Positions 1 through 12,355 are shown, numbered from the stretch's first letter. The stretch is DNA of 64,000 bases from Candidatus Omnitrophota bacterium (GCA_029560465.1 JAKQKX010000082.1:4947-68946); one strand, 5' to 3'. Notes: generated by a model from the sequence alone, not told the origin. Program-made: numbers and translations.

Positions 1-762
1 AATGGTAAAGTCCTCCACCCCATGCAAAAACATATTCATGCGAGCGATCGTTGAGGTGGTAAGGTTCTTCTCTTGGCCAAAAATTTTGAGCGTCCGGTAA
101 TCCTGCTTCTTTTCTTTCAAATGGTTAATACATTCCAAAAGCATGCCGCCGGTGCCGCAGGCCGGGTCGTAAATAGACTCACCGGGCTTGGCATCTATAA
201 TCCGTCCCATTAGATTGACTACGGAACGCGGCGTATAAAACTCCCCCGCTTTCTTATTCGTTAAATCAGCGAAATGCTTGATCAAATATTCATACGCCTG
301 ACCAAGAATATCCGGTTCAATGTGGCCGTTAGCCAGATAGTATTGAGAGAAATGTTCAATGAGATTAATGAGAAGCTCGTCCGAAAGCCGGTCTTTATTC
401 GTCCACTGGGCGTCGCCAAAGATGCCGTAAAGAAACTTCTGGTTCGCCTTCTCAACCTCACGGAACGCGTATTGAAGCGCTTGACCGACATTCTTTGTAA
501 CCTGCCGCACATCATTCCAGTGACAGTTCTCCGGAATTATGAACCGGTGAAATTCCGGCAAACTCGCGTATTCCACATCGCCGCCCGACTCTTCTAAGGC
601 TTGTTTGTATTCGTCGTCATACACGTCTGAAATGCGCTTGAAGAACAAAAGCGGGAATATATAAACCTTGAAGTCGGCCGCGTCTACCGGGCCTTTTAGG
701 ATCCATGCGGCTTTGGAAAGATATTGCTCGAGTTGTGAAAGGGTTATTTTTCCGTTATTCAT
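1..762 (-). CDS. hsdM: Type I restriction-modification N6-adenine DNA methyltransferase subunit HsdM. N-terminal ~254 aa only; the C-terminus runs off the window start.
   Basis: My translation of the minus strand from the ATG at 760-762 reads MNNGKITLSQLEQYL...EFYTPRSVVNLM...DPACGTGGMLLE...NMFLHGVEDFTI with no stops down to nt 1. It contains the SAM-binding DPACGTGG motif and an HsdM-like N-domain. The start ATG overlaps the RadC stop (ATGA). Confidence 0.8.
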   Translation of the reverse strand, partial: MNNGKITLSQLEQYLSKAAWILKGPVDAADFKVYIFPLLFFKRISDVYDDEYKQALEESGGDVEYASLPEFHRFIIPENCHWNDVRQVTKNVGQALQYAFREVEKANQKFLYGIFGDAQWTNKDRLSDELLINLIEHFSQYYLANGHIEPDILGQAYEYLIKHFADLTNKKAGEFYTPRSVVNLMGRIIDAKPGESIYDPACGTGGMLLECINHLKEKKQDYRTLKIFGQEKNLTTSTIARMNMFLHGVEDFTI

Positions 763-1457
763 AACCCTCCCTGATCGGCAAAGCTGAAATGCTTATCGCC
801 TGCGATAATAATGTGATCCAAAAGCTTTATATCCAAGAGCTTCCCTGCATTGGACAAGTCCTGAGTGAATTTCCTGTCTTGTGCGCTTGGAGAACATTCC
901 GAGCTGGGATGGTTATGAACACAGACAATTGACTTGGCGAACTTCTGCAACGCGGCGTGGATTATTTCACGGACAATAGGAAATGCCTGATCAACGGTGC
1001 CGACCGCGGTATCAATGATGTCGATAATACGGTTATTGCTATCAAGATAAACAACCTTAAAAACCTCTGTCTTAAGGTCGCGAAGCTGAGGCATGACGAT
1101 ATCCACAACATCCTTGGCAGAGGCAATCTTCTGCTTCCCGGTGGACACATCGTCCTGTCGATAGCGCCGCCCGATTTCAAGCGCGGCCTGAATATGGGCA
1201 ATCTTGGCCCCGCCTAAACCCTTAAACTCTTTCCAGTCCCGGGCGTCGGTATGGGCCATGTTTCGGAATGTGCCGAATTTCTTTAAGATCTTGCGGGCGA
1301 GGTCAATGGCGCTGGTGCCAGCAGTACCGGTGCGAAGCAGAATGGCCAGAAGCTCTGAATTACTCAAAGCCCCTGCGCCCTTCTTGAGGAGTTTCTCTCT
1401 CGGCCTGTCATCCTCCGGCCAAGACTTTATGCCTGTAACTTTCTTTTCCTTCACCAT
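759..1457 (-). CDS. RadC-like JAB-domain protein
   Basis: 232 aa. The N-terminal region shows the RadC consensus (RPREKLL..GAGALSNSELLAILL). The C-terminal JAB/MPN metalloprotease-like motif HNHPS is present. Confidence 0.8.
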   Translation of the reverse strand: MVKEKKVTGIKSWPEDDRPREKLLKKGAGALSNSELLAILLRTGTAGTSAIDLARKILKKFGTFRNMAHTDARDWKEFKGLGGAKIAHIQAALEIGRRYRQDDVSTGKQKIASAKDVVDIVMPQLRDLKTEVFKVVYLDSNNRIIDIIDTAVGTVDQAFPIVREIIHAALQKFAKSIVCVHNHPSSECSPSAQDRKFTQDLSNAGKLLDIKLLDHIIIAGDKHFSFADQGGL

Positions 1458-1495
1458 TCTTCTCTTCTCTCGAATTAACCCGCAATTAAACTATC

Positions 1496-2023
1496 CTACG
1501 GAAGCGCAAAAGCGCGGCACTTAATGCGAATCTCTTTAAGCTCCTTCAGCACTGCCGTCAAGTCAAACGATTCACCGCGAAACGTCAAAGTCTGCGTCAA
1601 AGGATCATACGCCCTATGATGATTGCTAGGAAAATTTCTCTTCATTGACTTGAATGAATCTATTGCCAAGTCGCTGTAGACAGCCGAAGATTTCCCCTTA
1701 AACCATTTTTCTATTCGATCGTCATAGTGTTCGAAATGATTGCGGAATTTGCGATCAGAAAGAAGATTCCCTTCGTCGACTTTAAGCAACTCCCGCAATC
1801 TTTTGCCTCGTACCGCGTATTTCTTTTCCTGTGGCCATAAAATCTTCGATACGTTTCCAGTAGCCACGAGAATCGATTGAATTGAACTCCAAACTTCAAT
1901 CTGATCGAAATTTTTTGTGATCGCCGATAAACGTTTAGCCGCCAATTCTGCAATCTTTGACTGCAACACAATCTCGCCTATAAAAACCATCTCAGCAAGG
2001 GCTTTTTGTGGCCTATTATCCAT
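1496..2023 (-). CDS. Hypothetical protein with a possible HEPN-like Rx4H motif
   Basis: 175-aa ORF that is co-oriented and tightly spaced with its neighbours. The sequence LSDRKFRNHFEHYDDR contains R-x4-H, matching the HEPN nuclease Rx4-6H signature. The composition (K/E/L-rich) looks helical. No other family was recognised. Confidence 0.45.
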   Translation of the reverse strand: MDNRPQKALAEMVFIGEIVLQSKIAELAAKRLSAITKNFDQIEVWSSIQSILVATGNVSKILWPQEKKYAVRGKRLRELLKVDEGNLLSDRKFRNHFEHYDDRIEKWFKGKSSAVYSDLAIDSFKSMKRNFPSNHHRAYDPLTQTLTFRGESFDLTAVLKELKEIRIKCRAFALP

Positions 2024-2070
2024 CGTTCACTTCCTCAATTCATCTAAACTTCCGGCTACCGGATGGCCTT

Positions 2071-2760
2071 TCATAACTGATTCGGCAATCCGCCGTATAA
2101 GTCCTTTGATAATTCCGATTGCCAATATTCTTTGGTATCAATATCCATAATCGTCAGTTTGCCCGACCACCCAGCGCCGGTGTCCAGATCCCACACGTTG
2201 CAAACATGAATCGGCTCAAGCGTTCTATAAATCTCCGTTGTCGTATGGCCGATAAAAATATCATCGTATTTTGTGATCTGCGCTTCACGTCTATAATTAG
2301 CCGCTTCCCATGCGTCTTTTAATAAATCCCTATCCCACACAAGCACCTGAGCACTATTTTGTTCCAATGGCAAATCCGGCACAAAACCGGCATGAACGAA
2401 AAGCTTATTCCTGACTTCCAACCAAAGATGTCCACTTTTTAGGAAGTCAATATGCGTCTGCGGCATAGGCCCACCGTTATACGACGCCATCGTCCGGTCA
2501 CCACCTTGACTTGTCCATATCTCCGGCTTATCGCCTCGCAAGGCCCAGTCGAGCGCCCACATGTCATGATTGCCAATGATCAGATCGCAGTGCTTGATCT
2601 TTAATAACTCGTCGATACACTGCCTGACTTCCGGATACCCATCGCAAACATCACCCATCACGATCAGGCGGTCTTTCTTATAATCGAACTTTGAGCGCTC
2701 AAAGCACTGCATCATCGCCTTGTAGGCGCCGTGGATGTCCCCGATGGCGAAGGTTCTCAT
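2071..2760 (-). CDS. Calcineurin-like metallophosphoesterase (Ser/Thr phosphatase / ApaH-like)
   Basis: The motifs GDIHG, GDVCDG and GNHD occur in the canonical order of the PPP-family metallophosphatase signature. The stop overlaps the start of the upstream gene by 4 nt. Confidence 0.75.
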   Translation of the reverse strand: MRTFAIGDIHGAYKAMMQCFERSKFDYKKDRLIVMGDVCDGYPEVRQCIDELLKIKHCDLIIGNHDMWALDWALRGDKPEIWTSQGGDRTMASYNGGPMPQTHIDFLKSGHLWLEVRNKLFVHAGFVPDLPLEQNSAQVLVWDRDLLKDAWEAANYRREAQITKYDDIFIGHTTTEIYRTLEPIHVCNVWDLDTGAGWSGKLTIMDIDTKEYWQSELSKDLYGGLPNQL

Positions 2761-3548
2761 TCCTCAATCCTTCGCCGAATATCTCCAAACTTCTCAAACG
2801 CGTCTTCTCTCACATTCGCGACATAAGCGTCCGGGCCGTTTTCCTGCTCAACAAATAAAGGCCCCTTTGAGTCAACACTGGCAAAATACTCTTTGAGATT
2901 CTCTTTGACCTGTTTGCCTTCTTTCAGTTTTTTGATAAGGCCGACCACATCGTCGCAAAGCTGTGCCTTTGTCGGGCTGAATCTGATCATATAATAAACG
3001 TAATAAAGGTCTTTCCTGAGCTTAGCTTTGTTTTCCCGATCGACAAACGTCAGCAGTTTATGGAAAACAAACATCGATTCTGTCGGTATCTGGATACTCT
3101 TGCCGTTCATTTTCACCGGCATGACAGAGCCAAGTAACAAACTGAAATGCTGGATTTCATTGATCTTGATCTCTTGGCCAACGATCTTATTGATGACTTT
3201 CCGGGAAACCTTGGGGTCGGTGATAAATTCAACTTCCGCTTTGGCATCACCGGAGGCATCTTTTACAATAGGCACAAAGGGAATCAGTCTGTCCATTGAA
3301 GCGTGGCGCTCTCCGTATCCCAAACGTTGCACCCGGGAAGCAACAGTATCCTTCCCTTTAAAGTCATGATCACCAACGCCGAAATCGATGTCTCCAGTAG
3401 TCACTGCCATATTGGGGACGTCTTTCCACATGTGTTTGGCATAGATGTACGGTACCCAACCGCCAACCAGAACAAGATACGGCAAAAAATCAGCCAGATC
3501 GTCTATAACTTTGATGAGGAGCTTTTCTCCCGGGAATTCTTTAGGCAA
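2757..3548 (-). CDS. Pol-beta-fold nucleotidyltransferase (AbiEii-like, putative toxin component)
   Basis: 263 aa. The sequence VLVGGWVPY (hGG) followed by TGDIDFGV ([DE]h[DE]h) matches the minimal NTase active-site pattern. It overlaps the upstream wHTH gene by 8 nt. Confidence 0.55.
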   Translation of the reverse strand: MPKEFPGEKLLIKVIDDLADFLPYLVLVGGWVPYIYAKHMWKDVPNMAVTTGDIDFGVGDHDFKGKDTVASRVQRLGYGERHASMDRLIPFVPIVKDASGDAKAEVEFITDPKVSRKVINKIVGQEIKINEIQHFSLLLGSVMPVKMNGKSIQIPTESMFVFHKLLTFVDRENKAKLRKDLYYVYYMIRFSPTKAQLCDDVVGLIKKLKEGKQVKENLKEYFASVDSKGPLFVEQENGPDAYVANVREDAFEKFGDIRRRIEE

Positions 3549-4236
3549 TTGATTTTCCTTCCTCTTTTAATGTCTTGAATAAATACTCGGCATGATCACG
3601 GCCTCTCTGCGGAAAATGGTAGAGGTCCAAATAAAGCTGGAGATTCGAAACAACATTGTATCCTTTGATCACTTGGGTATTGAAAAATGTGGCGCTTTTA
3701 TAATACGGGTTTATTAAATAAAAATTACCGCCCGTCTTTAATTCCTTCAGATCAAGCACCTGCCGCAAGTCCAATGAAGCGCTTTTGAAATTCTTTACCG
3801 GCAGGTAACAATATATTGTCTGCGTGTTCACGTAGCTGGTAATGAGATTGGCCCCGGTATGAAGCGCCAGGGCGTATTGATTGGGCTCTTTCTTCCCTGC
3901 AAAATATTCCTTTAGCCGGGGAAGAATATCCTCTCGGGTTGAGTAATAAAGATGGGCCTCGTTAAGCTCAAACTTATAGACTTTGAGCCACTCCTCAAGA
4001 AGCTCTTCTTTGTTTTGCAATATGCTATGCGCGAGCCTGCCAGAACGGACTCCTCCGACAAACCCCTTGGCGCGAAGTTCTGATAGCACTTTTGCCGCGC
4101 GCGCGCGGCCCACGCCAAATTCTTTCTCGAAATCCCTAGCGACCCATTTCCTATCGGGTTGAGATAGCATGGCGCGAATGATTATGTTCGCCTTATCTCC
4201 TAAAAGTATTTTCATCGTAGTAACTCCTTCGTACAA
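3541..4236 (-). CDS. AbiEi-like winged-helix regulator (putative antitoxin/regulator of the NTase operon)
   Basis: 231 aa. The N-terminal segment ARDFEKEFGVGRARAAKVLSELRAKGFV looks wHTH-like. It is the first gene of the operon and sits downstream of the repeat-rich promoter. Confidence 0.5.
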   Translation of the reverse strand: MYEGVTTMKILLGDKANIIIRAMLSQPDRKWVARDFEKEFGVGRARAAKVLSELRAKGFVGGVRSGRLAHSILQNKEELLEEWLKVYKFELNEAHLYYSTREDILPRLKEYFAGKKEPNQYALALHTGANLITSYVNTQTIYCYLPVKNFKSASLDLRQVLDLKELKTGGNFYLINPYYKSATFFNTQVIKGYNVVSNLQLYLDLYHFPQRGRDHAEYLFKTLKEEGKSIA

Positions 4237-4272
4237 TCCATTACTTGACTATCTGTTAAGCCAAGGCATATT

Positions 4273-4332
4273 AAATGTCCACTTTTCCTAAATGTCCACT
4301 ATTTAGTGGACATTTCCAATTAGTGGACATTT
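4273..4332. promoter_or_regulatory. Four-copy 11-bp operator array (AAATGTCCACT x2 direct, then AGTGGACATTT x2 inverted) upstream of the wHTH gene
   Basis: The four copies are exact, at 4273-4283, 4290-4300, 4305-4315 and 4322-4332. They lie 37-97 bp upstream of the start codon at 4236. Confidence 0.6.
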
Positions 4333-4562
4333 TACCATGATGCACCTGAGAGTCAAGAGAAATATCTGATGCAGGTCAGTAAAATTATGCCCATCCATGT
4401 CCATCAAAATGCCCTTTTTGAGCCCTCCCGGACGCCTGCAGGATACCCCTAAAATCGCCTGTTTTCCGACGCTGGGAGCTTATTTTGGCCGAGGTGACCA
4501 CTTATGCCCAAACCCCAAAAGTGATGGACATGGACATCGATTTTTTTGACCACTATCACTGG

Positions 4563-4672
4563 CTCCTTGCGCCTCGCCCGACCTGCTCCCCCACCCGGCT
4601 TCCAAGGACCCATGGCGCCTGCCAGCATAAAAAATCCCTATGGCCACGCCTCTCCGGCTCTACCATAGGGAC
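4563..4672. repeat. Conserved ~105-bp element, copy A. It carries a hairpin plus T-run that would act as a terminator on the minus strand.
   Basis: I aligned 4563-4672 to 11452-11554 by eye. Shared blocks are CTCCTGCGCCTCGCCCGACC, CCGGCTTCCAAGGACCC and AGCATAAAAAATCCCTATG...CCATAGGGA. The hairpin TCCCTATGG/CCATAGGGA is followed by T6 on the minus strand. Confidence 0.6.
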
Positions 4673-4947
4673 TTGAGTTGCTAAAGCGAGCTGATCCTTA
4701 CAACGCCCCGATTACCGCCTCCGCCAAGCGCGTCATCGCATTACTATAAATCTGCCACTGGCCAGCCGAAGGTGCGCAAAAGGATACGTAGCTTCTTCGG
4801 ACTTTTTTCTGTATTTTCTGCTCTGTTTCCGCTTGTTTTATCCATTTTAGCCCTTCGTCATAGCAAAGCTTCCACGGCCGGCTAGGCCCTTACCTTTAAA
4901 ATTTATGAGTGAAATACGGAATGACCAAAATATACAACTAGTTAAAT

Positions 4948-5832
4948 CTATTGTTTTATTCTGCCTAATTTTTGCATAATTAAATCCCCAAGTTGGTTCG
5001 GGCTCTTAAATTGTAAATCCACATAACAAATTGTCGGACGTAATCCGGGGAGTTCAGTCTTGTCAAAGCGCGCGGGCAAGATATACTCCCCTTTTTCTTC
5101 TAATTCTAAGGCTTTGGCTAAGGCACTTCCTCGCTCATGGCTCGGCCAAATCTTTTCCTTATAATGCTTGGAAATAAACATAACGCAATATCGAGCGTCG
5201 CCTCTGAATACTTTGTCTAAATGCTCAACCAAATCTTTTCCCCAGAGAGTGGCTTCTTCATACTTATCATAGAAGAAACGAATATTTTTTTTCTTTAAAT
5301 AGGCGGCAACTTTCTCGACATAATCCCTATCTTCTCCTGCGAATGAAAGCGCCACTTCATAGGCATTTTCACCCGGCATATTTTCTTTGTTCTCGCCGAT
5401 TCTTTTTGCCTTGTATATGCCTCTGCCAGATATCTGGGAATCTATATCAAGCCTATATCCATCCGGCTCCAAGTATTTGTTTAGCTCATCAACAACTTGT
5501 TTTACCTCACTCGCATCACGCTCTCGCAAGACAACAGGATGGACTACCTGTTCAATAAATTTTAAGAAGATAGTTTCGGGACATTCAAATAGTTTTAAAT
5601 AATTGGATAAGAGAAAATCTTCATCCCAGTCACTATTATTAATCATGTGTTGCCAGATGTCGCCTTCTGCATTTTCAAATCTGCCATCGGTGGAAGGCAT
5701 TGAGGACAAATCCCATACCCTTTTCAGGAAACCGACAAGGTCTAATTTACCGTAAAAAGGTTTACCTCTTACAAGTAGATAATCAATAATATCTCGTCGG
5801 GTTAATTCTGTAATAATCATTTCAAAAATCAT
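4948..5832 (-). CDS. TIR-domain protein with an unrecognised ~150-aa N-terminal domain
   Basis: The C-terminal half reads EVALSFAGEDRDYVEKVAAYLKKKNIRFFYD...CVMFISKHYKEKIWPSHE. This is the bacterial TIR pattern (SFAGEDR, an FxSxxY box, and a conserved Glu). Confidence 0.7.
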   Translation of the reverse strand: MIFEMIITELTRRDIIDYLLVRGKPFYGKLDLVGFLKRVWDLSSMPSTDGRFENAEGDIWQHMINNSDWDEDFLLSNYLKLFECPETIFLKFIEQVVHPVVLRERDASEVKQVVDELNKYLEPDGYRLDIDSQISGRGIYKAKRIGENKENMPGENAYEVALSFAGEDRDYVEKVAAYLKKKNIRFFYDKYEEATLWGKDLVEHLDKVFRGDARYCVMFISKHYKEKIWPSHERGSALAKALELEEKGEYILPARFDKTELPGLRPTICYVDLQFKSPNQLGDLIMQKLGRIKQ

Positions 5833-5897
5833 TTCTTTAGGCTTTTGTTATTTCAGCCCAATCCTTGCAAATAAGTACCGTCTGATTCAAAACTGTT

Positions 5898-6794
5898 TCA
5901 GTATCTTTTTGCTGTTAGTCTGGCGGGTAGCCATATTTTGTTCAGTAAACCCAGTGTTTTATCTATATCAAAACTTTTCTGCTCATCAATTGTCAGGACA
6001 GGGAACAGCTCATCAGAAAGCCGGGATTTCATTTCCTTTATTTCTTTGTCTTTTCTTCCAAGATTCACCCGGTAATTCTTTAAATCAGTTGAAAAGCCGT
6101 CCTCTTCAAGCTTTCGCTTGAAAAGTGATAGCAATTCCTTGCTTTTAAAATCAAACCCGCTTTTAAGTAAATAGCCCAAATCATAAAAATCCCGCGATGC
6201 AATAGTCTGCCTTGTTGATGCCGCCCGGAGCTTCTCAGCGACAAGCTCATTAATCGAAAGGCACGTTATCTTGCCGGCATCAAACAATTCTTCTTTTGTG
6301 AATGGGTGCAAGAATTTATGGTTGATTTTCCTGGTTGTAAAACTAAGCATAGGATTAAACCGAAGCCCGATTTCAAGCTTGATGGATTCTTTTTTGCCAA
6401 GAACCACTGAATCATAGTCAAGGTAATAGATGTATTGGGTGGATTCGTTATGTCCTGCGCTATCCAGATTCCCGACGCTCATTGCCAGTTTCTGTAATAG
6501 CGGCTGTAATGATTTCTTTATCGGTTCGATTGCTTTTTTTCGAATTGCGCGCGTTGCCTCATCTACAGGCAGTTTTAATGTAAAGTCCAAGTCCTCGCTT
6601 AAGCGGTAATATGAATAATAAACCTTGCTTAGTGCAGTGCCGCCCTTGAATACGAGGTCTGGGCTAAGCTCATTTATTTTTGAAAGAACTATGGTTATGT
6701 AATAATCTTTTTCAAGAAGCCGCAAGGGAAACCCTGTCTGGGCTGATGTCCTTTCAAGAATTTTTAAAAATTCAGATTTATTCTCATGAAGCAT
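5898..6794 (-). CDS. AbiEii/AbiGii-family nucleotidyltransferase toxin (DUF1814)
   Basis: FKGGTALSKVY followed by SEDLDF is the DUF1814 NTase signature. The gene overlaps the upstream AbiEi gene. Confidence 0.75.
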   Translation of the reverse strand: MLHENKSEFLKILERTSAQTGFPLRLLEKDYYITIVLSKINELSPDLVFKGGTALSKVYYSYYRLSEDLDFTLKLPVDEATRAIRKKAIEPIKKSLQPLLQKLAMSVGNLDSAGHNESTQYIYYLDYDSVVLGKKESIKLEIGLRFNPMLSFTTRKINHKFLHPFTKEELFDAGKITCLSINELVAEKLRAASTRQTIASRDFYDLGYLLKSGFDFKSKELLSLFKRKLEEDGFSTDLKNYRVNLGRKDKEIKEMKSRLSDELFPVLTIDEQKSFDIDKTLGLLNKIWLPARLTAKRY

Positions 6795-7593
6795 TTTCTA
6801 TGACCATCCATTTTTTGTTTATACTGCCTTTTCTTGACTGCGAAGGATAAATGTTAATCAGGGATGTCTTTTTGACTGCTTTTAATAGCGGGCTTAACAT
6901 GCCATCACTGACCCTGCATTCTTCAAGGGCAATGCCGATTCTTTTAATGAGTGCTGTATTGGAAGATTTAACCGCGTATTTAATAAGCCTTGCAATATCT
7001 GTCTTTTTTCCCATGACATCGGATTTCAATATCTCAAACGCTTTCTTTAATCCTCCGACTGGCTCGGAAAAATAAAACAGGTCAATCAGTGTTTTTTCCC
7101 TGTCGCTGACAATAACATCAGTGTCTTTTATTTTTATCGTTTCAAAACCATAAAGGCGTTTTGGGGCAATCTTAATCATCTTGAAGCGCATGTTGCTGAC
7201 AACCTTTTCTTTTTGAGTGGAAGTGTTCAGGATATACATTGTCTGGAAAAGCTGGTCAGTAAAGCCGTAGTAGTTGTACATTGTTGAATAGCCGATATAA
7301 TAATTTTTCTTTGGGAAAAAAAGCGGCGGGATTAGGAATTCATTGATGTTGCTCCCGGCAGGGCCTGCTTCCAAAGGTGAATACAAATAGACGCCATTCT
7401 TGATTTTTTTAAGAATGCCTTTTTTGGAAAGACGGTAAAGCGTCTTTGCCCGTATTGACTTGAGATAGCCAAATAACTTGTCAAACTCTTCCTGAGTGAT
7501 TACCGTCACTTTCTCATAGGAGAGCCTTGATATGACTTCCTGCTCTCTCGGATTCAAGTATTGCATTGTATTGTTCTTTATCATTTTGCCCAT
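6784..7593 (-). CDS. AbiEi-family antitoxin / transcriptional regulator
   Basis: 269 aa with an N-terminal wHTH. It is the first gene of the pair and overlaps the AbiEii start by 11 nt. Confidence 0.65.
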   Translation of the reverse strand: MGKMIKNNTMQYLNPREQEVISRLSYEKVTVITQEEFDKLFGYLKSIRAKTLYRLSKKGILKKIKNGVYLYSPLEAGPAGSNINEFLIPPLFFPKKNYYIGYSTMYNYYGFTDQLFQTMYILNTSTQKEKVVSNMRFKMIKIAPKRLYGFETIKIKDTDVIVSDREKTLIDLFYFSEPVGGLKKAFEILKSDVMGKKTDIARLIKYAVKSSNTALIKRIGIALEECRVSDGMLSPLLKAVKKTSLINIYPSQSRKGSINKKWMVIENAS

Positions 7594-7838
7594 AAATGGA
7601 AATGCTAGGAATTTACATACAATATAAATCTTATGGTTTTATTGCTGTTTGTCAATATATTTCAGCATGTTATGCGATAACTCCCCATCTCAGCAATCCG
7701 CTTCAAGACCCCTTCCATAATACGCCTGTAGCGCGCGCATCAATACCCTTTTCGTCACAACTTTTTTTCTGAATAAATTCCGTAAATTCCGGGGACACAC
7801 AACTAAACCTTATTTAGTGTGGGTGAGTAAATTATTCT

Positions 7839-8483
7839 TCAATTATCCGATGTAAGCAATCTTCGGCGATAATCATCCGCCGCGTCCTGCCGGTCACGCC
7901 GGTACTTGTAGACTTCATCACTAATCCTTGACGCCTCGCGTTGCGCATCCATCACAGCACGATGCTGTGCCTGCCATCCGGCGTCTGGCGCCATCATCAT
8001 TTGTTGTTGGCCTTGGGGCTGTTGAGCCTGGTTCTGTTCCTGGTACGGAGTAAACGCGAAAGCAATTAAGATAACTCCAAGAGCCATGACGACAATGGTC
8101 CCGGATGCAACATAAACCGAATTCTTGGGATTCTTGCGGACATAGGCACCCAAAGGCGAAAGCTTTCCCCTCCACGGACGATAGACAGCCGTAGAAAAAC
8201 GATAGGCTTTTTCTTCAAGCGGAGTCAGTCCCACCGGTATCTCATCGCCGGGAAGCGGCGGAGGCGTTGCTTTATCTCCGGGCAAAGGCGGCGGCTGAAT
8301 ACGGCTTTTGAATAATCCCGCCAATTCCTGAATCTCTACGGCCGGTTTCCAATTATTCATTCCCTCGCACCATGCGAGCATTTGGGAAGTAATCAGGCCT
8401 TCCGTAATATTTTTTTCGATGGCCTCCTGGTCAAACGGGCCGATTTTCTGATTGTCCTTGCCAAAATAATAAACTTTGCCCAT
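7839..8483 (-). CDS. DUF4339 (GYF-like) domain membrane protein with PPLPGD repeats
   Basis: KVYYFG..GPF......GLI....LAW.EGM..WKPA matches the DUF4339 pattern. PPPLPGD is repeated and one TM helix is present. I chose the start at MGKVYY because AGGAG lies upstream of it. Confidence 0.5.
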   Translation of the reverse strand: MGKVYYFGKDNQKIGPFDQEAIEKNITEGLITSQMLAWCEGMNNWKPAVEIQELAGLFKSRIQPPPLPGDKATPPPLPGDEIPVGLTPLEEKAYRFSTAVYRPWRGKLSPLGAYVRKNPKNSVYVASGTIVVMALGVILIAFAFTPYQEQNQAQQPQGQQQMMMAPDAGWQAQHRAVMDAQREASRISDEVYKYRRDRQDAADDYRRRLLTSDN

Positions 8484-8755
8484 GTCTTCTTCTCCTTTTT
8501 TGTCGCTTCCTAAAGTTCCAGAGACGCACAACCATACCTTATTTAGCTTGGGTTACGGCGCGCATCCCCCTCATTCAAAAAACACTCCTTGTTTTTTCAC
8601 CGTAGATCATTTGTTTGCCATCTAGTAAACTCCTTAAATAAATCGACTATACGATCCAACCGTCAGCCAAAACTTTTCAAATAAATCTTTTTAATCATAA
8701 TGGGTAATTATCGTTCAAGAAAGTTTTGTAGTATAAAATTTTTGGACTGCATTGA

Positions 8756-10465
8756 TTATCCAATTATTTCTTTAATATAAGGCCCTAAATCCATATCTTT
8801 ATACGAAGTCCCTGCCCGCACAACAGGGTATAAGACTTCCTCGACATCTGTCATGACTTCAAGCAGACAGGGGCCCGAGGATTTCATAAATAAGTCAAGC
8901 CCTTCGGACAACTCGCTACGGGAAGTAATTCTTTTTGAGAATTTGTACTGGCAGTGTTTAGCCAACTCAGAAAAATTCACATCAGATTTTCTTTCAGTGG
9001 CAGAGTGCCTTTTTCCATAGGACACATCTTCAAGATTCCTTACCATGCCATCACTTCGGTTGTTAAGAAGAAGTATTTTAATCGGCAAGTCAAGTGAACC
9101 GATTGTATGCAATTCCCCCATATTCATTCTGAAACTGCCATCCCCATCAATAACGATGACAGTCGCGTCAGGATTTGCGTAATATGCGCCTATCGCGCTC
9201 GGCATCCCAAAACCCATAGTGCCAAAACTTCCGGGTGTAAGAAATGACTTTGGCTTGCTCATCCGCAGATATTGAGCCGCTAAAAGTTGATGATTGCCTA
9301 CGCCTGTTGCAATTATTGTGTTGTTATCTACAAACGTGCTCATAAGGTCGAGCACTTCCGCCTGATGAATCAATTTTCCGTCCCGGCAATAATTCAACGG
9401 CCATGTTTTTTTCAGCTGGACTGCATATTGAATCCAATCATCAATGGCTATTCTTATATTCTTGCGCTTTGCATAATCAGTCAAATCATTAAGAGCACTG
9501 GCGGCATCACCAATAAAAGAAAAATCAGGGTTACGCTCATTTCTTATTTGATGGACTTTCTGGGTATTAATATCTATATAGGCAATTTTAGCTTCAATAG
9601 CAAACCCCACCTTTTCCGCTACACGGTCATCCCAGCGAACGCCAACAGCAAAAAAGAAATCATTTTTCTGGATTATTTTATTAGCGTAAGGCGTTCCAAA
9701 CATGCCTAATAACCCTAAAGAAGATGGCGCGTTTTCGTCAACAACTCCTTTGGCCATTAAGGTATTAACAGAAGGGATATTAAAAAGAGAATTAAATTTG
9801 CGTATGGCATCGCTTCCATCTTTTGAATTAAGGCCTCCGCCTAAATATAATAATGGGCGTTTTGCTTCTGTCAGTAGTTTAAAGAAATGCTCGCACTGTT
9901 TTTCGGAGAAATGCCATTCATTGCTATACACTGTTTTAAACCTATCAAGATTGTTGCCAGCGTATTTGTTAATACTCTGTTGAAGATTGATTGGAATATC
10001 AATAACAACTGGCCCGGGCTTTCCCGATTTTGCCAAGAAATAGGCGTCTTTAATAACGGACTCAATATTGTCGATGCTGTCCACAAGAACAACCTTCTTG
10101 GCAGTAGGCCCGAAGACTGCGGATACGTCAATATGCTGAAATGAGTCAGTCCCAATTTTATGCTCGGGAACCTGCCCGGCGATTACAATCAATGGAATAC
10201 TGTCAGCAAAAGAATCAGCTACAGCAGTTAAAGTGTTGGTAATAGCAGGCCCGGAAGTCACGATAGCGACTCCGACGCTGTCGCTTGCCCGGGAATAACC
10301 GGCGGCGCTAAAAGCAGAAGACTGCTCGTTGGAGTTAACAACAATCTGAATAGAACTTTTCCCCAGCTCATCCATTACCGGAAGTATAGCTGCTCCCGTA
10401 TATCCAAAGATGTGTTTTATCCCGAGGTCTTCCAGGCTTTTAACTAAAATTTCTGCGCCGTTCAT
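8756..10465 (-). CDS. Thiamine-pyrophosphate-dependent enzyme, acetolactate synthase large-subunit-like
   Basis: GAEILVKSLEDLGIKHIFGYTGAAILPVMDEL is a TPP_enzyme_N start. The later region GDGSFRMNMGELHT resembles the TPP-binding GDG..N motif. I chose the start at MNGAEIL because an AAGGAG RBS precedes it. Confidence 0.7.
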   Translation of the reverse strand: MNGAEILVKSLEDLGIKHIFGYTGAAILPVMDELGKSSIQIVVNSNEQSSAFSAAGYSRASDSVGVAIVTSGPAITNTLTAVADSFADSIPLIVIAGQVPEHKIGTDSFQHIDVSAVFGPTAKKVVLVDSIDNIESVIKDAYFLAKSGKPGPVVIDIPINLQQSINKYAGNNLDRFKTVYSNEWHFSEKQCEHFFKLLTEAKRPLLYLGGGLNSKDGSDAIRKFNSLFNIPSVNTLMAKGVVDENAPSSLGLLGMFGTPYANKIIQKNDFFFAVGVRWDDRVAEKVGFAIEAKIAYIDINTQKVHQIRNERNPDFSFIGDAASALNDLTDYAKRKNIRIAIDDWIQYAVQLKKTWPLNYCRDGKLIHQAEVLDLMSTFVDNNTIIATGVGNHQLLAAQYLRMSKPKSFLTPGSFGTMGFGMPSAIGAYYANPDATVIVIDGDGSFRMNMGELHTIGSLDLPIKILLLNNRSDGMVRNLEDVSYGKRHSATERKSDVNFSELAKHCQYKFSKRITSRSELSEGLDLFMKSSGPCLLEVMTDVEEVLYPVVRAGTSYKDMDLGPYIKEIIG

Positions 10466-10537
10466 TGAATGCTCCTTCTTAATGAGTCCATTCGATAATT
10501 TTGATATTTTGTCCAATTTTTTTAATGATGGATTCTT

Positions 10538-10738
10538 TCATGTTTGGGCAAGCAAAACCAATAGGATTTCAAACTCAGATGGGCTCAGATAACCAAGCGT
10601 TGAATGATCCCGTTTACGGTTCTCCCAAAACTTCTCGGATTCATCTTTATCTCCTGTGTGGTCCATTTCATTGCTAAAGGGGCACAATACGTTTATTTTT
10701 GCCTGAGCCTCATCAACCTTACTTAAAATCTTTTTCAT
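10538..10738 (-). pseudogene. IS3-family transposase C-terminal remnant
   Basis: FWENRKRDHSTLGYLSPSEFE matches the extreme C-terminus of IS3 OrfB (rve) proteins (…YN..RRHS.LGYLSP.EFE). The upstream catalytic domain is absent. Confidence 0.6.
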
Positions 10739-10776
10739 ATGACCGCCACCTTACTGGCTTAAGAGTCAAGAAATTG

Positions 10777-11376
10777 CTACGAATTCAATTGTTTAAATAT
10801 TTCACCTATCCAAGCCGGGGCATAACGAATATCGTTTATAAGCTGTTTTTTATCCTCGGCTGATAACTTTTTTTTAAGCGAATTAATAATCTTCTCGTCA
10901 ATATTTCTTTGTTTCATGTAACGGAAAGCCTGAATAACCAAGCCGCTCACACGCCCGGCAGTCGCCATATTCTTTGGTGATGTCTTCTTAAACTTAATTT
11001 GCCAGTTGCCAACTTGAACCGCCCGGGTAGAGCCATTTGTTAATAAAACAATCTTTGCCGGTACTTGATCAGACAACCCCAGCAAGTTGGCCGCGTATGC
11101 TCCTGAAGGCTGAATCTTAAGATTATCTTTTTCAGCAAGCGCGGCGGTAACACGCTCAACGCTCGGCGGCGTTTCTTCAAAATCCGGATGTTTTCGTGGA
11201 TAATCATAAAGTCCACGCGCTAATCTGCGGATATCTCCAGATCGAACCAGTCGGCTCAACGCCTGATCTACAGCGGCACGATTGCCAAGATCAAGAAAAT
11301 GGCTTGGGGCAAATACCCATCCCTTTTTCTTGCCGATAATCCGGCGAAGGATTTTACTCTCAATGGATTCTGTCAT
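10777..11376 (-). CDS. AbiEi_4 / DUF6088-type antitoxin-like protein (orphan)
   Basis: 199 aa with WVFAPSHFLDLG..AVDQALSRLVRSGDIRRLARGLYDYP at the N-terminus, which is the DUF6088 pattern. No cognate NTase lies downstream; an IS remnant sits there instead. Confidence 0.55.
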   Translation of the reverse strand: MTESIESKILRRIIGKKKGWVFAPSHFLDLGNRAAVDQALSRLVRSGDIRRLARGLYDYPRKHPDFEETPPSVERVTAALAEKDNLKIQPSGAYAANLLGLSDQVPAKIVLLTNGSTRAVQVGNWQIKFKKTSPKNMATAGRVSGLVIQAFRYMKQRNIDEKIINSLKKKLSAEDKKQLINDIRYAPAWIGEIFKQLNS

Positions 11377-11451
11377 ATTTATCTCTTTTTATAGTCAGAA
11401 ATAATATATTGCACTTCTGACAGAAAGTAAAGCTGTTTTTAAGCTCCTGCG

Positions 11452-11554
11452 CCTCGCCCGACCCTCACCCCACACCGGCTTCCAAGGACCCGTAGCCATA
11501 TCTAGGAGCATAAAAAATCCCTATGACCGCACGTCTCGATACGACCATAGGGAT
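11452..11554. repeat. Conserved ~105-bp element, copy B, 10 bp downstream of the bla stop on the minus strand
   Basis: Same alignment as copy A. The hairpin ATCCCTATGACC...GGTCATAGGGAT plus T6 reads as a terminator on the minus strand. Confidence 0.6.
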
Positions 11555-11563
11555 GACTGATTA

Positions 11564-12355
11564 TTACAAAAGGTTTTGTGACTTAAAGATATTCTCTATG
11601 ATCGTCCTGGCAGTCTTGCCCGAGGGATTCTCGCCTCCGGCAATATTGCAGGCAAAAACGTAGGTCGTGCCGTCATGCTCCAAGAAGCCCACAAACCAGC
11701 CCAAATTCCATTTCCCGTCAGGCCCTGTGCCGGAGCCGGTTTTGCCGTAAAGCGTTCCTTTGGTGGTCTTCTCTACCCGCATGATATCGCGTAGTAGCAC
11801 AATATTCTTTTCAGAAAACGGAAGCTTGCCATCCAAAAGCTTGTTTAAAAGAGCGACCTGTTCATCCGCGCTGATCTTGATAGATGTGGTTTCAGGGCGC
11901 GGAAGCCAGAAGATATCGATCCCGGCAGAAATATCCTGTGAGCCATAGCTGATCTTTCCAATATACTCCTTCATCCGGGCTTCACCGATCTGCTGTGCTA
12001 AGAGCTGGTATGCGGGGACGGCCGACACCCTAAACGCTTCGCGGAGCGTTAAATCCTGATTCCATCCCTCTATGTCACGCTTCACCCCATCCCATTTATA
12101 CCACGATTCATCAGCGCCCTTTATGAGCCCAAGCTCAAGCCCGATGAGCGTATTGTAGATCTTGAATGTCGAGCACGGCGAAAGACGCCGGGCGCTAAGC
12201 TTCGGATCCGCATTGACAACCTCGCCGTTTGCCCGGTTATAAATCACCAGAGCCGCGTCATACCCCTGCAAAAAAGCTTGATCGATTTCCTGAGCAAAGG
12301 AAACCGGCCCCATAAACAAAAAACAGATGCAAAATACGGTTTTATTTATACGCAT
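11564..12355 (-). CDS. Class D (OXA-type) beta-lactamase
   Basis: An N-terminal signal peptide is followed by the STFK active-site motif, an SAV (SxV) motif, YGKTGSG (KTG), and W..G (WFVGF). Confidence 0.8.
   Translation of the reverse strand: MRINKTVFCICFLFMGPVSFAQEIDQAFLQGYDAALVIYNRANGEVVNADPKLSARRLSPCSTFKIYNTLIGLELGLIKGADESWYKWDGVKRDIEGWNQDLTLREAFRVSAVPAYQLLAQQIGEARMKEYIGKISYGSQDISAGIDIFWLPRPETTSIKISADEQVALLNKLLDGKLPFSEKNIVLLRDIMRVEKTTKGTLYGKTGSGTGPDGKWNLGWFVGFLEHDGTTYVFACNIAGGENPSGKTARTIIENIFKSQNLL

Follow-up and report, generated by a model that had tools for sequence, protein, structure and literature searches.

The region described here lies at a recombination hot spot in the genome of a Candidatus Omnitrophota bacterium and is made up, mosaic-like, of three units. 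In it, a predicted AbiE-like gene pair (a wHTH gene and a nucleotidyltransferase, NTase) is followed by a metallophosphoesterase gene (MPE) that recurs in other loci as a third gene, translationally coupled to AbiE-type NTase genes, while a gene for a 175-aa protein travels with radC–hsdM and not with the wHTH–NTase–MPE trio. For the region as a whole, we moderately favour the explanation that the coupled phosphatase re-arms the toxin of the AbiE-like pair, with the 175-aa gene as a separate element belonging with radC–hsdM. The window referred to throughout is the whole 64,000-nt stretch that was analysed (GCA_029560465.1, JAKQKX010000082.1:4947-68946).

All four ORFs that a sequence-only reading had joined into one system lie on the minus strand, at the coordinates it gave and with every motif it quoted (Table 1). 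Its overlapping stop and start codons were found at two junctions, wHTH/NTase (8 nt) and NTase/MPE (4 nt, ATGA), and were missing from the third, where a 47-nt spacer, with an RBS of its own for the 175-aa gene, follows MPE. A gap of 38 nt separates the 175-aa gene from radC, and the ATG of hsdM overlaps the radC stop codon. A terminator scan predicted no terminators between the four genes. The wHTH ORF spans 3541–4236 if a TTG is used; the RBS and homologues favour the ATG start.

Table 1 Features at the module slot and its flanks in the window
Coordinates	Strand	Feature	Remarks
1..762	-	HsdM N-terminal part (type I R-M methylase)	Leaves the window
759..1457	-	RadC, UPF0758_N + JAB domain	Pfam RadC 1.6e-38
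1496..2023	-	HEPN-like 175-aa gene, independent, heading the radC-hsd block	R94-N-H-F-E-H99
2071..2760	-	NinI/lambda-type PPP-family metallophosphoesterase (MPE), putative Ser/Thr protein phosphatase, 229 aa	Facultative third gene
2757..3548	-	Pol-beta-fold NTase (NTP_transf_8), putative toxin, 263 aa	PF12281
3541..4215	-	wHTH antitoxin-like gene (AbiEi_2), 224 aa	Start = ATG 4215
4273..4332	-	Putative operator, four 11-nt half-sites (AAATGTCCACT)	Overlaps the -10
4329..4356	-	Promoter-like site: TTGACT, 16-nt spacer, extended -10 TG-TAAAAT	Score 10/12 with TG extension
4385..4618	-	Conserved non-coding element, ~230 nt, upstream edge of variable module slot	74-98% identity
4629..4670	-	Terminator-like hairpin CCCTATGG ... 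CCATAGGG + T6, ends the upstream transcription unit	Read from sequence

Pfam bore out the first three domain assignments (AbiEi_2, NTP_transf_8 and Metallophos, each above its cut-off), and the two neighbours were verified as RadC (NCBIfam PRK00024, 233.8 bits against a cut-off of 180) and HsdM (methyltransferase motif DPACGTGGML in the translation). The defence-island setting proposed earlier is also real: besides the type I R-M system, an AbiJ-TIR gene and another AbiEi/AbiEii pair, this one canonical, lie nearby. PADLOC-DB v2 models matched none of the NTase, the phosphoesterase and the 175-aa protein; the sole PADLOC match in the cluster was a weak one of the wHTH protein to PDC-M05A (E 0.007) and, as had been supposed, PADLOC holds no matching known multi-gene system.

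By their family matches, the first two genes are an AbiE-like pair of an AbiEi_2 wHTH protein and an NTP_transf_8 NTase, in keeping with the earlier reading. The NTase, from a family that NCBI names ‘GSU2403 family’, matched only PF12281 in Pfam (35.7 bits against a cut-off of 26.3, E 1.2e-8) and neither the AbiEii family PF08843/DUF1814 nor the PADLOC AbiEii models; an hhalign alignment with AbiEii gave a local match only (probability 69%, E 4e-5, residues 136–204). It contains the motifs LVGGW and GDIDF, and its TTGDID stretch resembles the TTLDID of a bona fide AbiEii. Across 58 homologues, residue 51 (T in 49, S in 9), D53, D55, E/D107 and K179-D180 were invariant and K164 was present in 55; GG29-30 was invariant too, but is uninformative as the loci were collected by a pattern containing GG.

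The wHTH protein matched Pfam PF09952 AbiEi_2 over residues 73–218 (28.9 bits against a cut-off of 21, E 1.7e-6), with weak wHTH-type Pfam matches across its N-terminus and no match to any PADLOC AbiEi model. Its gene was directly upstream of the NTase gene in essentially all 74 NTase-anchored genome loci, down to ~22% NTase identity. It was also kept where the NTase had been deleted (L099, L144-148), and L039, L041 and L044 are among the loci with a deleted or truncated NTase in which it is still present, which is the pattern expected if a toxin gene decays. A TTGACT ... TGGTAAAAT arrangement, as at the promoter-like site of the window, was found 5′ of the wHTH gene in most related loci. The putative operator over this promoter comprises two direct and two inverted half-sites with 17-nt spacing; these were conserved in loci whose wHTH proteins are at least ~70% identical, and in a clade with ~50% identical wHTH proteins they become ATGTTCACT/AGTGAACA in an unchanged layout. 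Direct and inverted repeats over the promoter suggest that the wHTH–NTase pair is autoregulated.

Further upstream, the ~230-nt element was found in at least 12 other loci ahead of different modules, namely AbiEi_2/NTase, AbiEi_4/AbiEii, DUF6088/AbiEii and HTH_3/DUF4062. Its predicted fold is closed by a 14-bp long-range inverted repeat, with weak covariation (four sequences). The terminator-like hairpin beyond it is kept in L168 and L176; the terminator scan missed it, presumably on account of a 19-nt loop longer than the scan allows.

The third gene was identified by its matches as a homologue of NinI/lambda-type Ser/Thr phosphatases. It matched Pfam Metallophos (1.9e-10, 41.9 bits against a cut-off of 21.5), PHROG 246 ‘NinI-like serine-threonine phosphatase’ (6.4e-45) and, full-length over residues 4–207, the lambda phosphatase structure 1G5B (8.9e-11). 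The metal-binding motifs GDIHG, GDVCDG and GNHD, with H123 and H172, were invariant in nine orthologues, and the arginine of GDxxDRG is absent (GDVCDGY). MPE fell below the equivalog cut-offs for ApaH (70.2 bits against 176 for PRK00166) and PrpA/B (66 bits against 326 for PRK11439), with ApaH profiles matching weakly. Enzymes of the MPE superfamily are promiscuous. A weak match of PHROG 8238 ‘RNA ligase’ to the N-terminus was also seen.

An AbiE-type NTase gene, from either of two Pfam families, lay directly upstream of MPE in 45 of the 69 MPE-anchored loci (73 in total) in which the upstream gene could be assessed: PF12281 NTases in 31, the PF08843 AbiEii cluster c3 in 13 and cluster c11 in one. 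The two genes overlapped by 4 nt in 24/31 of the PF12281 loci and 9/13 of the c3 loci. Given the genes present in these loci, ~7 such adjacencies were expected (binomial P 5e-28, uncorrected and ignoring phylogeny). The MPE-anchored loci all share at least 68% identity, and independent events number far below 45. The wHTH–NTase–MPE trio had many different surroundings and was seen in MAGs that are labelled as belonging to three phyla, and it also occurred without the ~230-nt hot-spot element, including with an NTase clade at ~40% identity. A second, unrelated phosphoesterase family (Metallophos_2, ~180 aa) shows the same 4-nt overlap with another AbiEii clade. MPE is nevertheless dispensable to NTase loci, a facultative third gene: of 21 close NTase-anchored genome loci, 10 have it intact, 6 carry a decayed copy and 5 lack it, and in the 53 more distant ones it was never found.

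Swapping of cassettes at a single hot spot may account for part of this association, since MPE genes 95–97% identical to each other stand behind different NTase families and share 59 nt that span the NTase/MPE junction. Taken further, MPE could be a functionally unrelated resident at the hot-spot edge, beside which toxin–antitoxin cassettes are swapped in. This would agree with the exchange boundary 59 nt upstream of the MPE start, with the conserved ~230-nt element at the other edge of the slot, with radC often being the next gene after MPE and with the decay or absence of MPE in half of the close NTase loci. We consider it unlikely, as ATGA overlaps with two NTase families in 33 loci are unexpected for a passive neighbour, the genes downstream of MPE vary as much as those upstream, the trio recurs away from the hot-spot element and with varied flanks, and the second phosphoesterase family is likewise coupled. 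The fallback of the sequence-only reading, a canonical AbiE pair with unrelated neighbours, fares no better: the NTase is not of the canonical AbiEii family, and MPE is recurrent and coupled. A three-gene arrangement of AbiE plus phosphatase is plausible, and none of the AbiE/MenAT papers that we consulted mentions a translationally coupled third-gene phosphatase.

What such a phosphatase might do is indicated by work on AbiEii and MenT toxins. AbiEii T65, MenT3 S78 and MenT1 T39 are auto-phosphorylated upon antitoxin binding, which abolishes NTase activity; activity is restored in vitro by a Ser/Thr phosphatase, and an in vivo role for a phosphatase is stated as open (bioRxiv 10.64898/2026.01.19.700257; PMC11375011). 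The S/T phospho-acceptor position is reported to be strictly conserved across the NTase superfamily (PMC11375011). The NTase of the window keeps an AbiEii/MenT-type active site, including the invariant Thr/Ser two residues before DxD.

The order and overlaps of the genes, their motifs and family matches, the co-occurrence statistics and the boundaries of the mosaic were observed directly. We propose that the wHTH protein neutralizes the NTase and also binds the four-site operator that overlies the promoter of its own gene. Toxicity, tRNA target, NTase phosphorylation and phosphatase substrate are here inferred by analogy with a different NTase family, PF08843. On that analogy, the NTase would add nucleotides to tRNA 3′ ends, blocking translation, and would be silenced by antitoxin-induced auto-phosphorylation of the Thr before DxD. 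The phosphatase would strip the inhibitory phosphate, so that stored toxin is re-armed once the antitoxin stops acting. Antitoxin-driven auto-phosphorylation would thus be the ‘off’ state and its continuous reversal by the operon-encoded phosphatase the ‘on’ state, with the toxin pool firing when the antitoxin is lost or sequestered.

MPE might instead act as a second antitoxin, a reversal enzyme that trims NTase-added nucleotides off tRNA 3′ ends or removes NMP groups so that cells recover. Phosphoesterases of the second family follow AbiEii, Fic and RhuM, all NMP-transfer-type toxins, behind the same DUF6088 antitoxin, a pattern that suits a generic role in undoing modifications; many members of the MPE superfamily are also phosphodiesterases, the ApaH-type profile matches of MPE, if weak, point the same way, and the MenT literature lists 3′ ribonucleases that reverse the NTase modification as a mode of control. 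The best, full-length matches of MPE are, however, to protein Ser/Thr phosphatases (NinI/lambda PP, 6.4e-45; 1G5B), and a co-expressed reversal enzyme would leave the toxin permanently ineffective, so that we regard this role as rather improbable.

Bacterial Pnkp joins a P-loop kinase and a lambda-phosphatase-like MPE domain, and a small P-loop kinase gene (AAA_18, SKI or AAA_33) lies directly 3′ of MPE in L005 and in eight MPE-anchored loci. By this pairing, and with the weak N-terminal ‘RNA ligase’ match, MPE and kinase could be a Pnkp-type RNA end-healing system (2′,3′-cyclic phosphatase plus 5′ kinase) repairing ribotoxin-damaged tRNAs, with the NTase rebuilding 3′ ends. We judge this very unlikely: only a minority of loci have the kinase, the window not among them, a ligase or Hen1 partner is absent, and the NTase goes together with a wHTH antitoxin-like regulator and shows toxin-like decay patterns.

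We return to the re-arming phosphatase as the preferred reading, in which the 175-aa gene has no part. The Rx4H motif reported in its product is genuine: within RNHFEH, R94 and H99 were invariant in 77 family members, down to ~30% identity, N95 and E98 were at least 90% conserved, and D101 was invariant, with the neighbouring Tyr/Phe not conserved. This agrees with the usual R-[NDH]-x-x-x-H form of the HEPN Rx4-6H motif, which in HEPN proteins lies where helix 3 of a four-helix up-and-down bundle ends. The profile search that the sequence-only reading had proposed for this protein matched no described HEPN family, with none of the 77 members hit by Pfam HEPN models; the family had no Pfam, PADLOC or relevant NCBIfam match at all, and no PDB sequence match. 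The protein is predicted to have a core formed by a helical bundle, in which the motif falls on a kinked helix, and a C-terminal extension of a β-hairpin and a helix. It is probably a HEPN protein from a large family without models, the fold match being non-specific.

Several observations place this gene outside the trio. It was found in 0/74 NTase-anchored genome loci, and behind MPE in 2/73 MPE-anchored loci, both from the strain of the window itself and 100% identical to the window; the four genes thus do not co-occur elsewhere, contrary to the view that they are one system and as the sequence-only reading had itself named for its refutation. Its homologues stand alone or behind unrelated modules, and close ones directly precede radC-hsdR/S/M, with upstream modules of four other kinds. 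Nucleotide identity of 85–90% to other genomes begins ~20 nt inside the 175-aa ORF and continues through radC and hsdM (89.7% between the hsdM genes of the window and L176), which assigns the 175-aa gene to the downstream block; a comparison with L090 shows the gene as a segment of ~600 bp inserted cleanly between MPE and radC. HEPN/MNT toxins carry an Rx4HxY motif, whose Tyr is AMPylated. That the window holds one four-gene system resembling such HEPN/MNT type VII pairs, its NTase nucleotidylating the HEPN toxin and MPE de-modifying it, is highly improbable: the genes are co-oriented with no terminator predicted between them, and L168-170 have the analogous order DUF6088-AbiEii-Metallophos_2-HEPN-like, but the 175-aa gene accompanies the NTase only in this strain, occurs alone or behind modules lacking an NTase, is linked at the nucleotide level to radC-hsd and has its own spacer and RBS, while the AMPylated-Tyr position is the invariant D101 and the NTase is AbiEii-like, not MNT.

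The 175-aa protein would be a small, probably HEPN-type RNase that serves as an RNA-targeting back-up to restriction, the RNase activity being inferred. Only tentatively do we combine both proposals, that some AbiE/MenAT-like modules carry their own NinI/lambda-type phosphatase reversing toxin auto-phosphorylation and that the 175-aa protein founds a HEPN family. If true, the coupled phosphatase would supply the ‘re-activation’ arm that type VII NTase toxin control has been missing, and the HEPN family would be a large, unmodelled one attached to radC–type I R-M operons.

Among known systems, the window resembles HEPN/MNT type VII TA in having NTase and HEPN-like genes in one co-oriented cluster, but the two genes are found together in this strain alone, the NTase is of another type than MNT and the Tyr position of Rx4HxY is Asp. 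HEPN domains are tightly associated with R-M systems (PMC3710099). The R-M-linked HEPN RNases (PrrC/RloC, AbiU2, AbiJ, ApeA and more) and the integron-cassette HEPN (PDB 3JRT) catalogued there resemble the 175-aa protein in its invariant R-N-x-x-E-H and in its predicted core, a helical bundle whose kinked helix bears the motif, and the 175-aa gene likewise heads a type I R-M gene block. It differs in lacking a profile match to Pfam HEPN or PDB sequences and in its predicted C-terminal β-hairpin and helix, with a non-specific fold match; unlike PrrC/RloC, it has no ABC-ATPase domain and its gene is upstream of radC-hsd, not within hsd.

MPE aligns over its full length with lambda NinI (1G5B) and E. 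coli PrpA/PrpB, being of similar size (~220–230 aa) and sharing the GDxHG, GDxxD, GNH[DE], H and GH metal-binding motifs. It is, however, only ~25–30% identical to them, does not reach the NCBIfam equivalog cut-offs for PrpA/PrpB or ApaH, has the GDxxDRG Arg replaced (GDVCDGY) and is encoded inside a putative toxin–antitoxin operon. The closest parallel to that operon is AbiE/MenAT (AbiEi–AbiEii; COG5340–DUF1814; reclassified type VII), a two-gene operon in which a wHTH antitoxin gene comes first and an overlapping NTase gene follows. In the window, the putative antitoxin likewise belongs to a Pfam family of AbiEi proteins (AbiEi_2), the promoter is overlain by inverted and direct repeats, and there is an NTase with GG ... 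[ST]-x-D-x-D, a third acidic residue, K and KD motifs and a Ser/Thr at the position of the known phospho-acceptor. In contrast to AbiE/MenAT, its NTase belongs to PF12281 and not PF08843/DUF1814, linked by a local profile match only, PADLOC AbiE models match neither the wHTH protein nor the NTase, and the operon adds a translationally coupled phosphatase as its third gene.

Five co-oriented ORFs occupy the minus strand between 759 and 4236. A sequence-only reading had proposed that the first four, encoding a winged helix-turn-helix (wHTH) protein, a nucleotidyltransferase (NTase), a metallophosphoesterase (MPE) and a 175-aa HEPN-like protein, form a single toxin–antitoxin (TA) or abortive-infection system beside RadC and HsdM. 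Every motif quoted in that reading was found in the translated ORFs and its domain calls for the first three genes were borne out, with the wHTH protein matching Pfam AbiEi_2 above cut-off; the functions given here to all genes of this uncultured Omnitrophota are predicted from sequence and context. The overlapping stop and start codons that it described are present at the wHTH/NTase (8 nt) and NTase/MPE (ATGA) junctions, but not between MPE and the 175-aa gene, where a 47-nt spacer contains the ribosome-binding site (RBS) of the latter.

Features of the region, with recurrent genes and elements of related loci (L-numbers, from other genomes and metagenomes gathered in homologue scans)
Feature	Position in the window, or loci	Strand	Basis or remark
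wHTH protein, 224 aa	3541–4236 from TTG; start moved to ATG 4215	minus	RBS and all homologues
NTase, 263 aa	2757–3548	minus	Pfam NTP_transf_8 above cut-off
MPE, 229 aa	2071–2760	minus	Pfam Metallophos above cut-off
175-aa protein	1496–2023	minus	ORF with own RBS
RadC	759–1457	minus	ORF
HsdM N-terminus	begins on radC stop codon, leaves window	minus	translation
Promoter-like site	4329–4356		
Conserved non-coding element, ~230 nt	4385–4618; partial copy 11443–11491		74–98% identical across genomes
Same element, other loci	L012, L015, L016, L088, L090–L092, L097, L105, L117, L168–L171, L176		
Second AbiEi	6784–7593	minus	PADLOC 1.5e-48
Second AbiEii	5898–6794	minus	6.6e-39
AbiJ_NTD3–TIR protein	4948–5832	minus	Pfam 9.8e-53 and 4.3e-18
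Orphan DUF6088/AbiEi-type antitoxin gene	10777–11376	minus	region 10538–11376
Fic fragment, 30 residues	10658–10747		region 10538–11376
Metallophos_2 phosphoesterase	L097, L131, L168–L170 (and L111, L112, L176)		
Decayed MPE	L009/L013, L016, L017, L019, L020, L023		
P-loop kinase-like gene	L005/L006 7485–8039; L094, L116, L118, L129, L131, L133, L135, L139, L156		
~148-aa protein	L014 2435–2869, L015 2872–3318, L105, L139, L143, L147		

A scan anchored on the NTase (one genome per species, with the NTase alignment as query) gave 74 loci, which were then searched with all five window proteins. The wHTH gene lies directly upstream of the NTase gene in essentially all of them, at NTase identities down to ~22%, and MPE is confined to the close NTase clade (at least 61% identity, 21 loci), where it is intact in 10, a frameshifted or truncated remnant in 6 and absent from 5. 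The 175-aa gene was present in none of the 74. In an MPE-anchored metagenome scan, which gave 80 loci, it followed MPE in 2 of the 73 that could be assessed for it, both 100% identical to the window, and its homologues otherwise stand alone or behind unrelated genes. The sequence-only reading had named a lack of co-occurrence in other genomes as what would refute it; because the gene is absent or rare at both kinds of locus, the four genes are not a genuine single system. An HEPN/MNT-like four-gene model was considered and rejected.

The wHTH–NTase pair has the features of a TA module. Four AAATGTCCACT half-sites (two direct, two inverted) come after its promoter-like site with a spacing of 17 nt. 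Related loci carry the identical layout ahead of the wHTH gene, and in a clade whose wHTH protein is ~50% identical the half-site becomes ATGTTCACT with the layout unchanged; such co-variation with the wHTH clade would be expected of an autoregulatory operator, and we regard the site as a putative operator. The sole Rfam match in window positions 1–12000 was a chance-level miRNA on the operator palindrome, and no family was found. Across 58 NTase homologues, [T/S]51-x-D53-x-D55, E/D107 and K179-D180 are invariant and K164 nearly so; GG29-30 is also invariant, but carries no weight, as the pattern used to collect the loci contained it. In several loci the wHTH gene is kept where the NTase has been lost or truncated, which is the usual pattern of TA-pair decay. 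Profile comparison of the NTase with AbiEii gave a local match across the K and (K/R)D-x-Y motifs at 69% probability. As the NTase is not PF08843 in Pfam and none of the PADLOC AbiE models matches the pair, we class it as AbiE-like, not AbiE. PADLOC also returned no match for the NTase, MPE or 175-aa protein individually, a PDB sequence search with the NTase found nothing, a plasmid collection contained no match to it, and the literature searched for PF12281, PF09952 and GSU2403 included no study of the pair, an apparent 'AbiEi_2' mention being a citation superscript.

The gene directly upstream of MPE and on the same strand was a PF12281 NTase in 31 of the 69 MPE-anchored loci in which that side was readable, after genes had been called and clustered in all 80. 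In 13 it was a bona fide PF08843 AbiEii (2.7e-39) preceded by an AbiEi_4 gene, and in one another AbiEii; five further loci kept the wHTH gene and an NTase remnant. A 4-nt stop/start overlap with MPE recurred in 24 of the 31 PF12281 loci and 9 of the 13 PF08843 loci. Given the genes that these loci contain, ~7 NTase–MPE adjacencies would be expected, in a test that ignores the relatedness of the loci. The wHTH–NTase–MPE trio was found with many different flanks, with an NTase clade at ~40% identity, and in metagenome-assembled genomes labelled Omnitrophota, Planctomycetia and Elusimicrobiota. Metallophos_2 (~180 aa), a second phosphoesterase family whose coupling is independent of that of MPE, has a 4-nt overlap with the stop of yet another AbiEii clade, behind a DUF6088 antitoxin, and occupies the same position after Fic or RhuM genes with the same antitoxin upstream.

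Behind intact wHTH–NTase genes, MPE has decayed independently through frameshifts, an internal deletion or reduction to N- or C-terminal stubs, suggesting that some hosts can dispense with it or select against it. A gene for a small P-loop kinase-like protein (AAA_18, SKI, AAA_33; ~175–190 aa) directly follows MPE in ~9 loci and, in L118, comes after it with one gene in between; a kinase–phosphatase pair beside an NTase recalls Pnkp-type RNA end-healing. A ~148-aa protein (MEY[NT][LV]KHKNLIAKLFKKAGMLEEA...) with no Pfam match also recurs beside MPE or AbiEii genes.

Comparison with L090, laid out as AbiEi_4–AbiEii–MPE–RadC–Hsd, revealed a mosaic. The two sequences share 90% identity over MPE and the 59 nt ahead of its start; similarity is absent over the 175-aa gene and returns 13 nt before radC. 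The last ~59 nt of the two NTase genes (PF12281 in the window, 2760–2819; PF08843 in L090, 4945–5001) are ~90% identical in nucleotides up to the shared ATGA junction, which places a cassette-exchange boundary inside the 3′ end of the toxin gene. Twelve or more other loci have the ~230-nt element upstream of modules that differ, always ahead of the variable module, whatever its kind. A 14-bp long-range inverted repeat (GTCCATGTCCATCA / TGATGGACATGGAT) closes its predicted fold, with weak covariation over four sequences; the element had no Rfam match and may mark a recombination boundary or encode a structured RNA. The order of this hot spot is a conserved left-flank element, an exchangeable toxin module, an optional phosphatase, an optional HEPN-like gene and radC–hsd. 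In L016, a 155-aa protein (MPMIKCTDEQAYLIELCL...) fills the slot ahead of radC. From the L090 comparison and the ~230-nt element, the region is a slot whose occupants, namely toxin modules, phosphoesterases and the 175-aa gene, are reassorted partly independently of one another. Such assortment inflates raw NTase–MPE adjacency counts, and we therefore retain the rival explanation that MPE is an unrelated neighbour of the pair; with the overlap recurring behind two toxin families and the separate Metallophos_2 coupling on the other side, we consider it unlikely.

The 175-aa protein belongs to a family of 755 clusters at 90% identity and 2,587 at 50%. Pfam, PADLOC and NCBIfam gave no relevant match over 77 diverse members, and neither a PDB sequence search with the family nor Foldseek against the PDB found a significant one. 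R94, H99 and D101 are invariant, and E17, Q21, N95, E98 and R137 nearly so. An initial shallow alignment yielded an AF2 model that was poor near the Rx4H motif (pLDDT 72.7); with a deeper one, the fold was modelled confidently (pLDDT 91.9) as a helical bundle in which the motif falls on a kink and after which come a small beta-hairpin and a C-terminal helix. On balance, the protein is likely to belong to HEPN. The family is not mainly phage-borne, since a viral-contig scan gave only two matches. Close homologues (80–89% identical) lie directly before radC–hsdR/S/M and are preceded by upstream modules of four other kinds, another lineage has a homologue before hsdR, and 85–90% nucleotide identity begins ~20 nt inside the ORF and extends via radC into hsdM. 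HEPN genes attached to restriction–modification (R-M) operons are a described theme (PMC3710099), and the 175-aa gene is best seen as an R-M-attached HEPN gene that has not been described before. This very large, unannotated putative HEPN family, now set apart from the wHTH–NTase–MPE module, is a second point of interest.

Elsewhere in the window lies a second, canonical AbiEi/AbiEii pair, followed by an AbiJ_NTD3–TIR gene; no phosphoesterase stands behind either (4948–7593). Further on, an orphan DUF6088/AbiEi-type antitoxin gene precedes a Fic fragment, whose short ORF ends in residues resembling a transposase C-terminus. The two appear to be what is left of a decayed DUF6088–Fic module, of the kind that L111 and L112 have intact.

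The best matches of MPE are protein Ser/Thr phosphatases: it matched PHROG 246 ('NinI-like serine-threonine phosphatase') at 6.4e-45 and lambda phosphatase 1G5B at 8.9e-11 over its full length, and all of its metal ligands are invariant among orthologues. It scores far under the NCBIfam ApaH and PrpA/B equivalog cut-offs, and ApaH orthology was rejected on that score. In the plasmid collection no relative exceeds 29% identity; two were inspected, and neither adjoins an AbiE gene.

In known type VII systems, the antitoxin silences the NTase toxins MenT1, MenT3 and AbiEii by inducing them to phosphorylate themselves on an active-site Ser/Thr, and AbiEii regains activity in vitro through a Ser/Thr phosphatase; the role of phosphatases in vivo is an open question, for which these papers, from one group (work of 2024–2026), point to unidentified cellular phosphatases (PMC11375011; bioRxiv 10.64898/2026.01.19.700257). 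The phospho-acceptor is strictly conserved across the superfamily (PMC11375011). In our NTase, T/S51 lies two residues ahead of DxD, like TTLDID in the AbiEii of MPE-anchored loci. Read most economically, the phosphatase encoded in the operon would be the re-activating arm of an antitoxin-driven phospho-switch on the NTase, although MPE enzymes have promiscuous activities and loss of the gene is frequent. Were the phosphatase link false, the locus would be an ordinary AbiE-like pair within a defence island. The interest now lies in AbiE-like modules that come in a three-gene form, with a lambda-type phosphatase of their own: a phosphatase gene that overlaps the stop of NTase toxin genes of two Pfam families offers a concrete, testable three-gene construct, and bears directly on how the phosphorylated toxin is re-activated in type VII systems.
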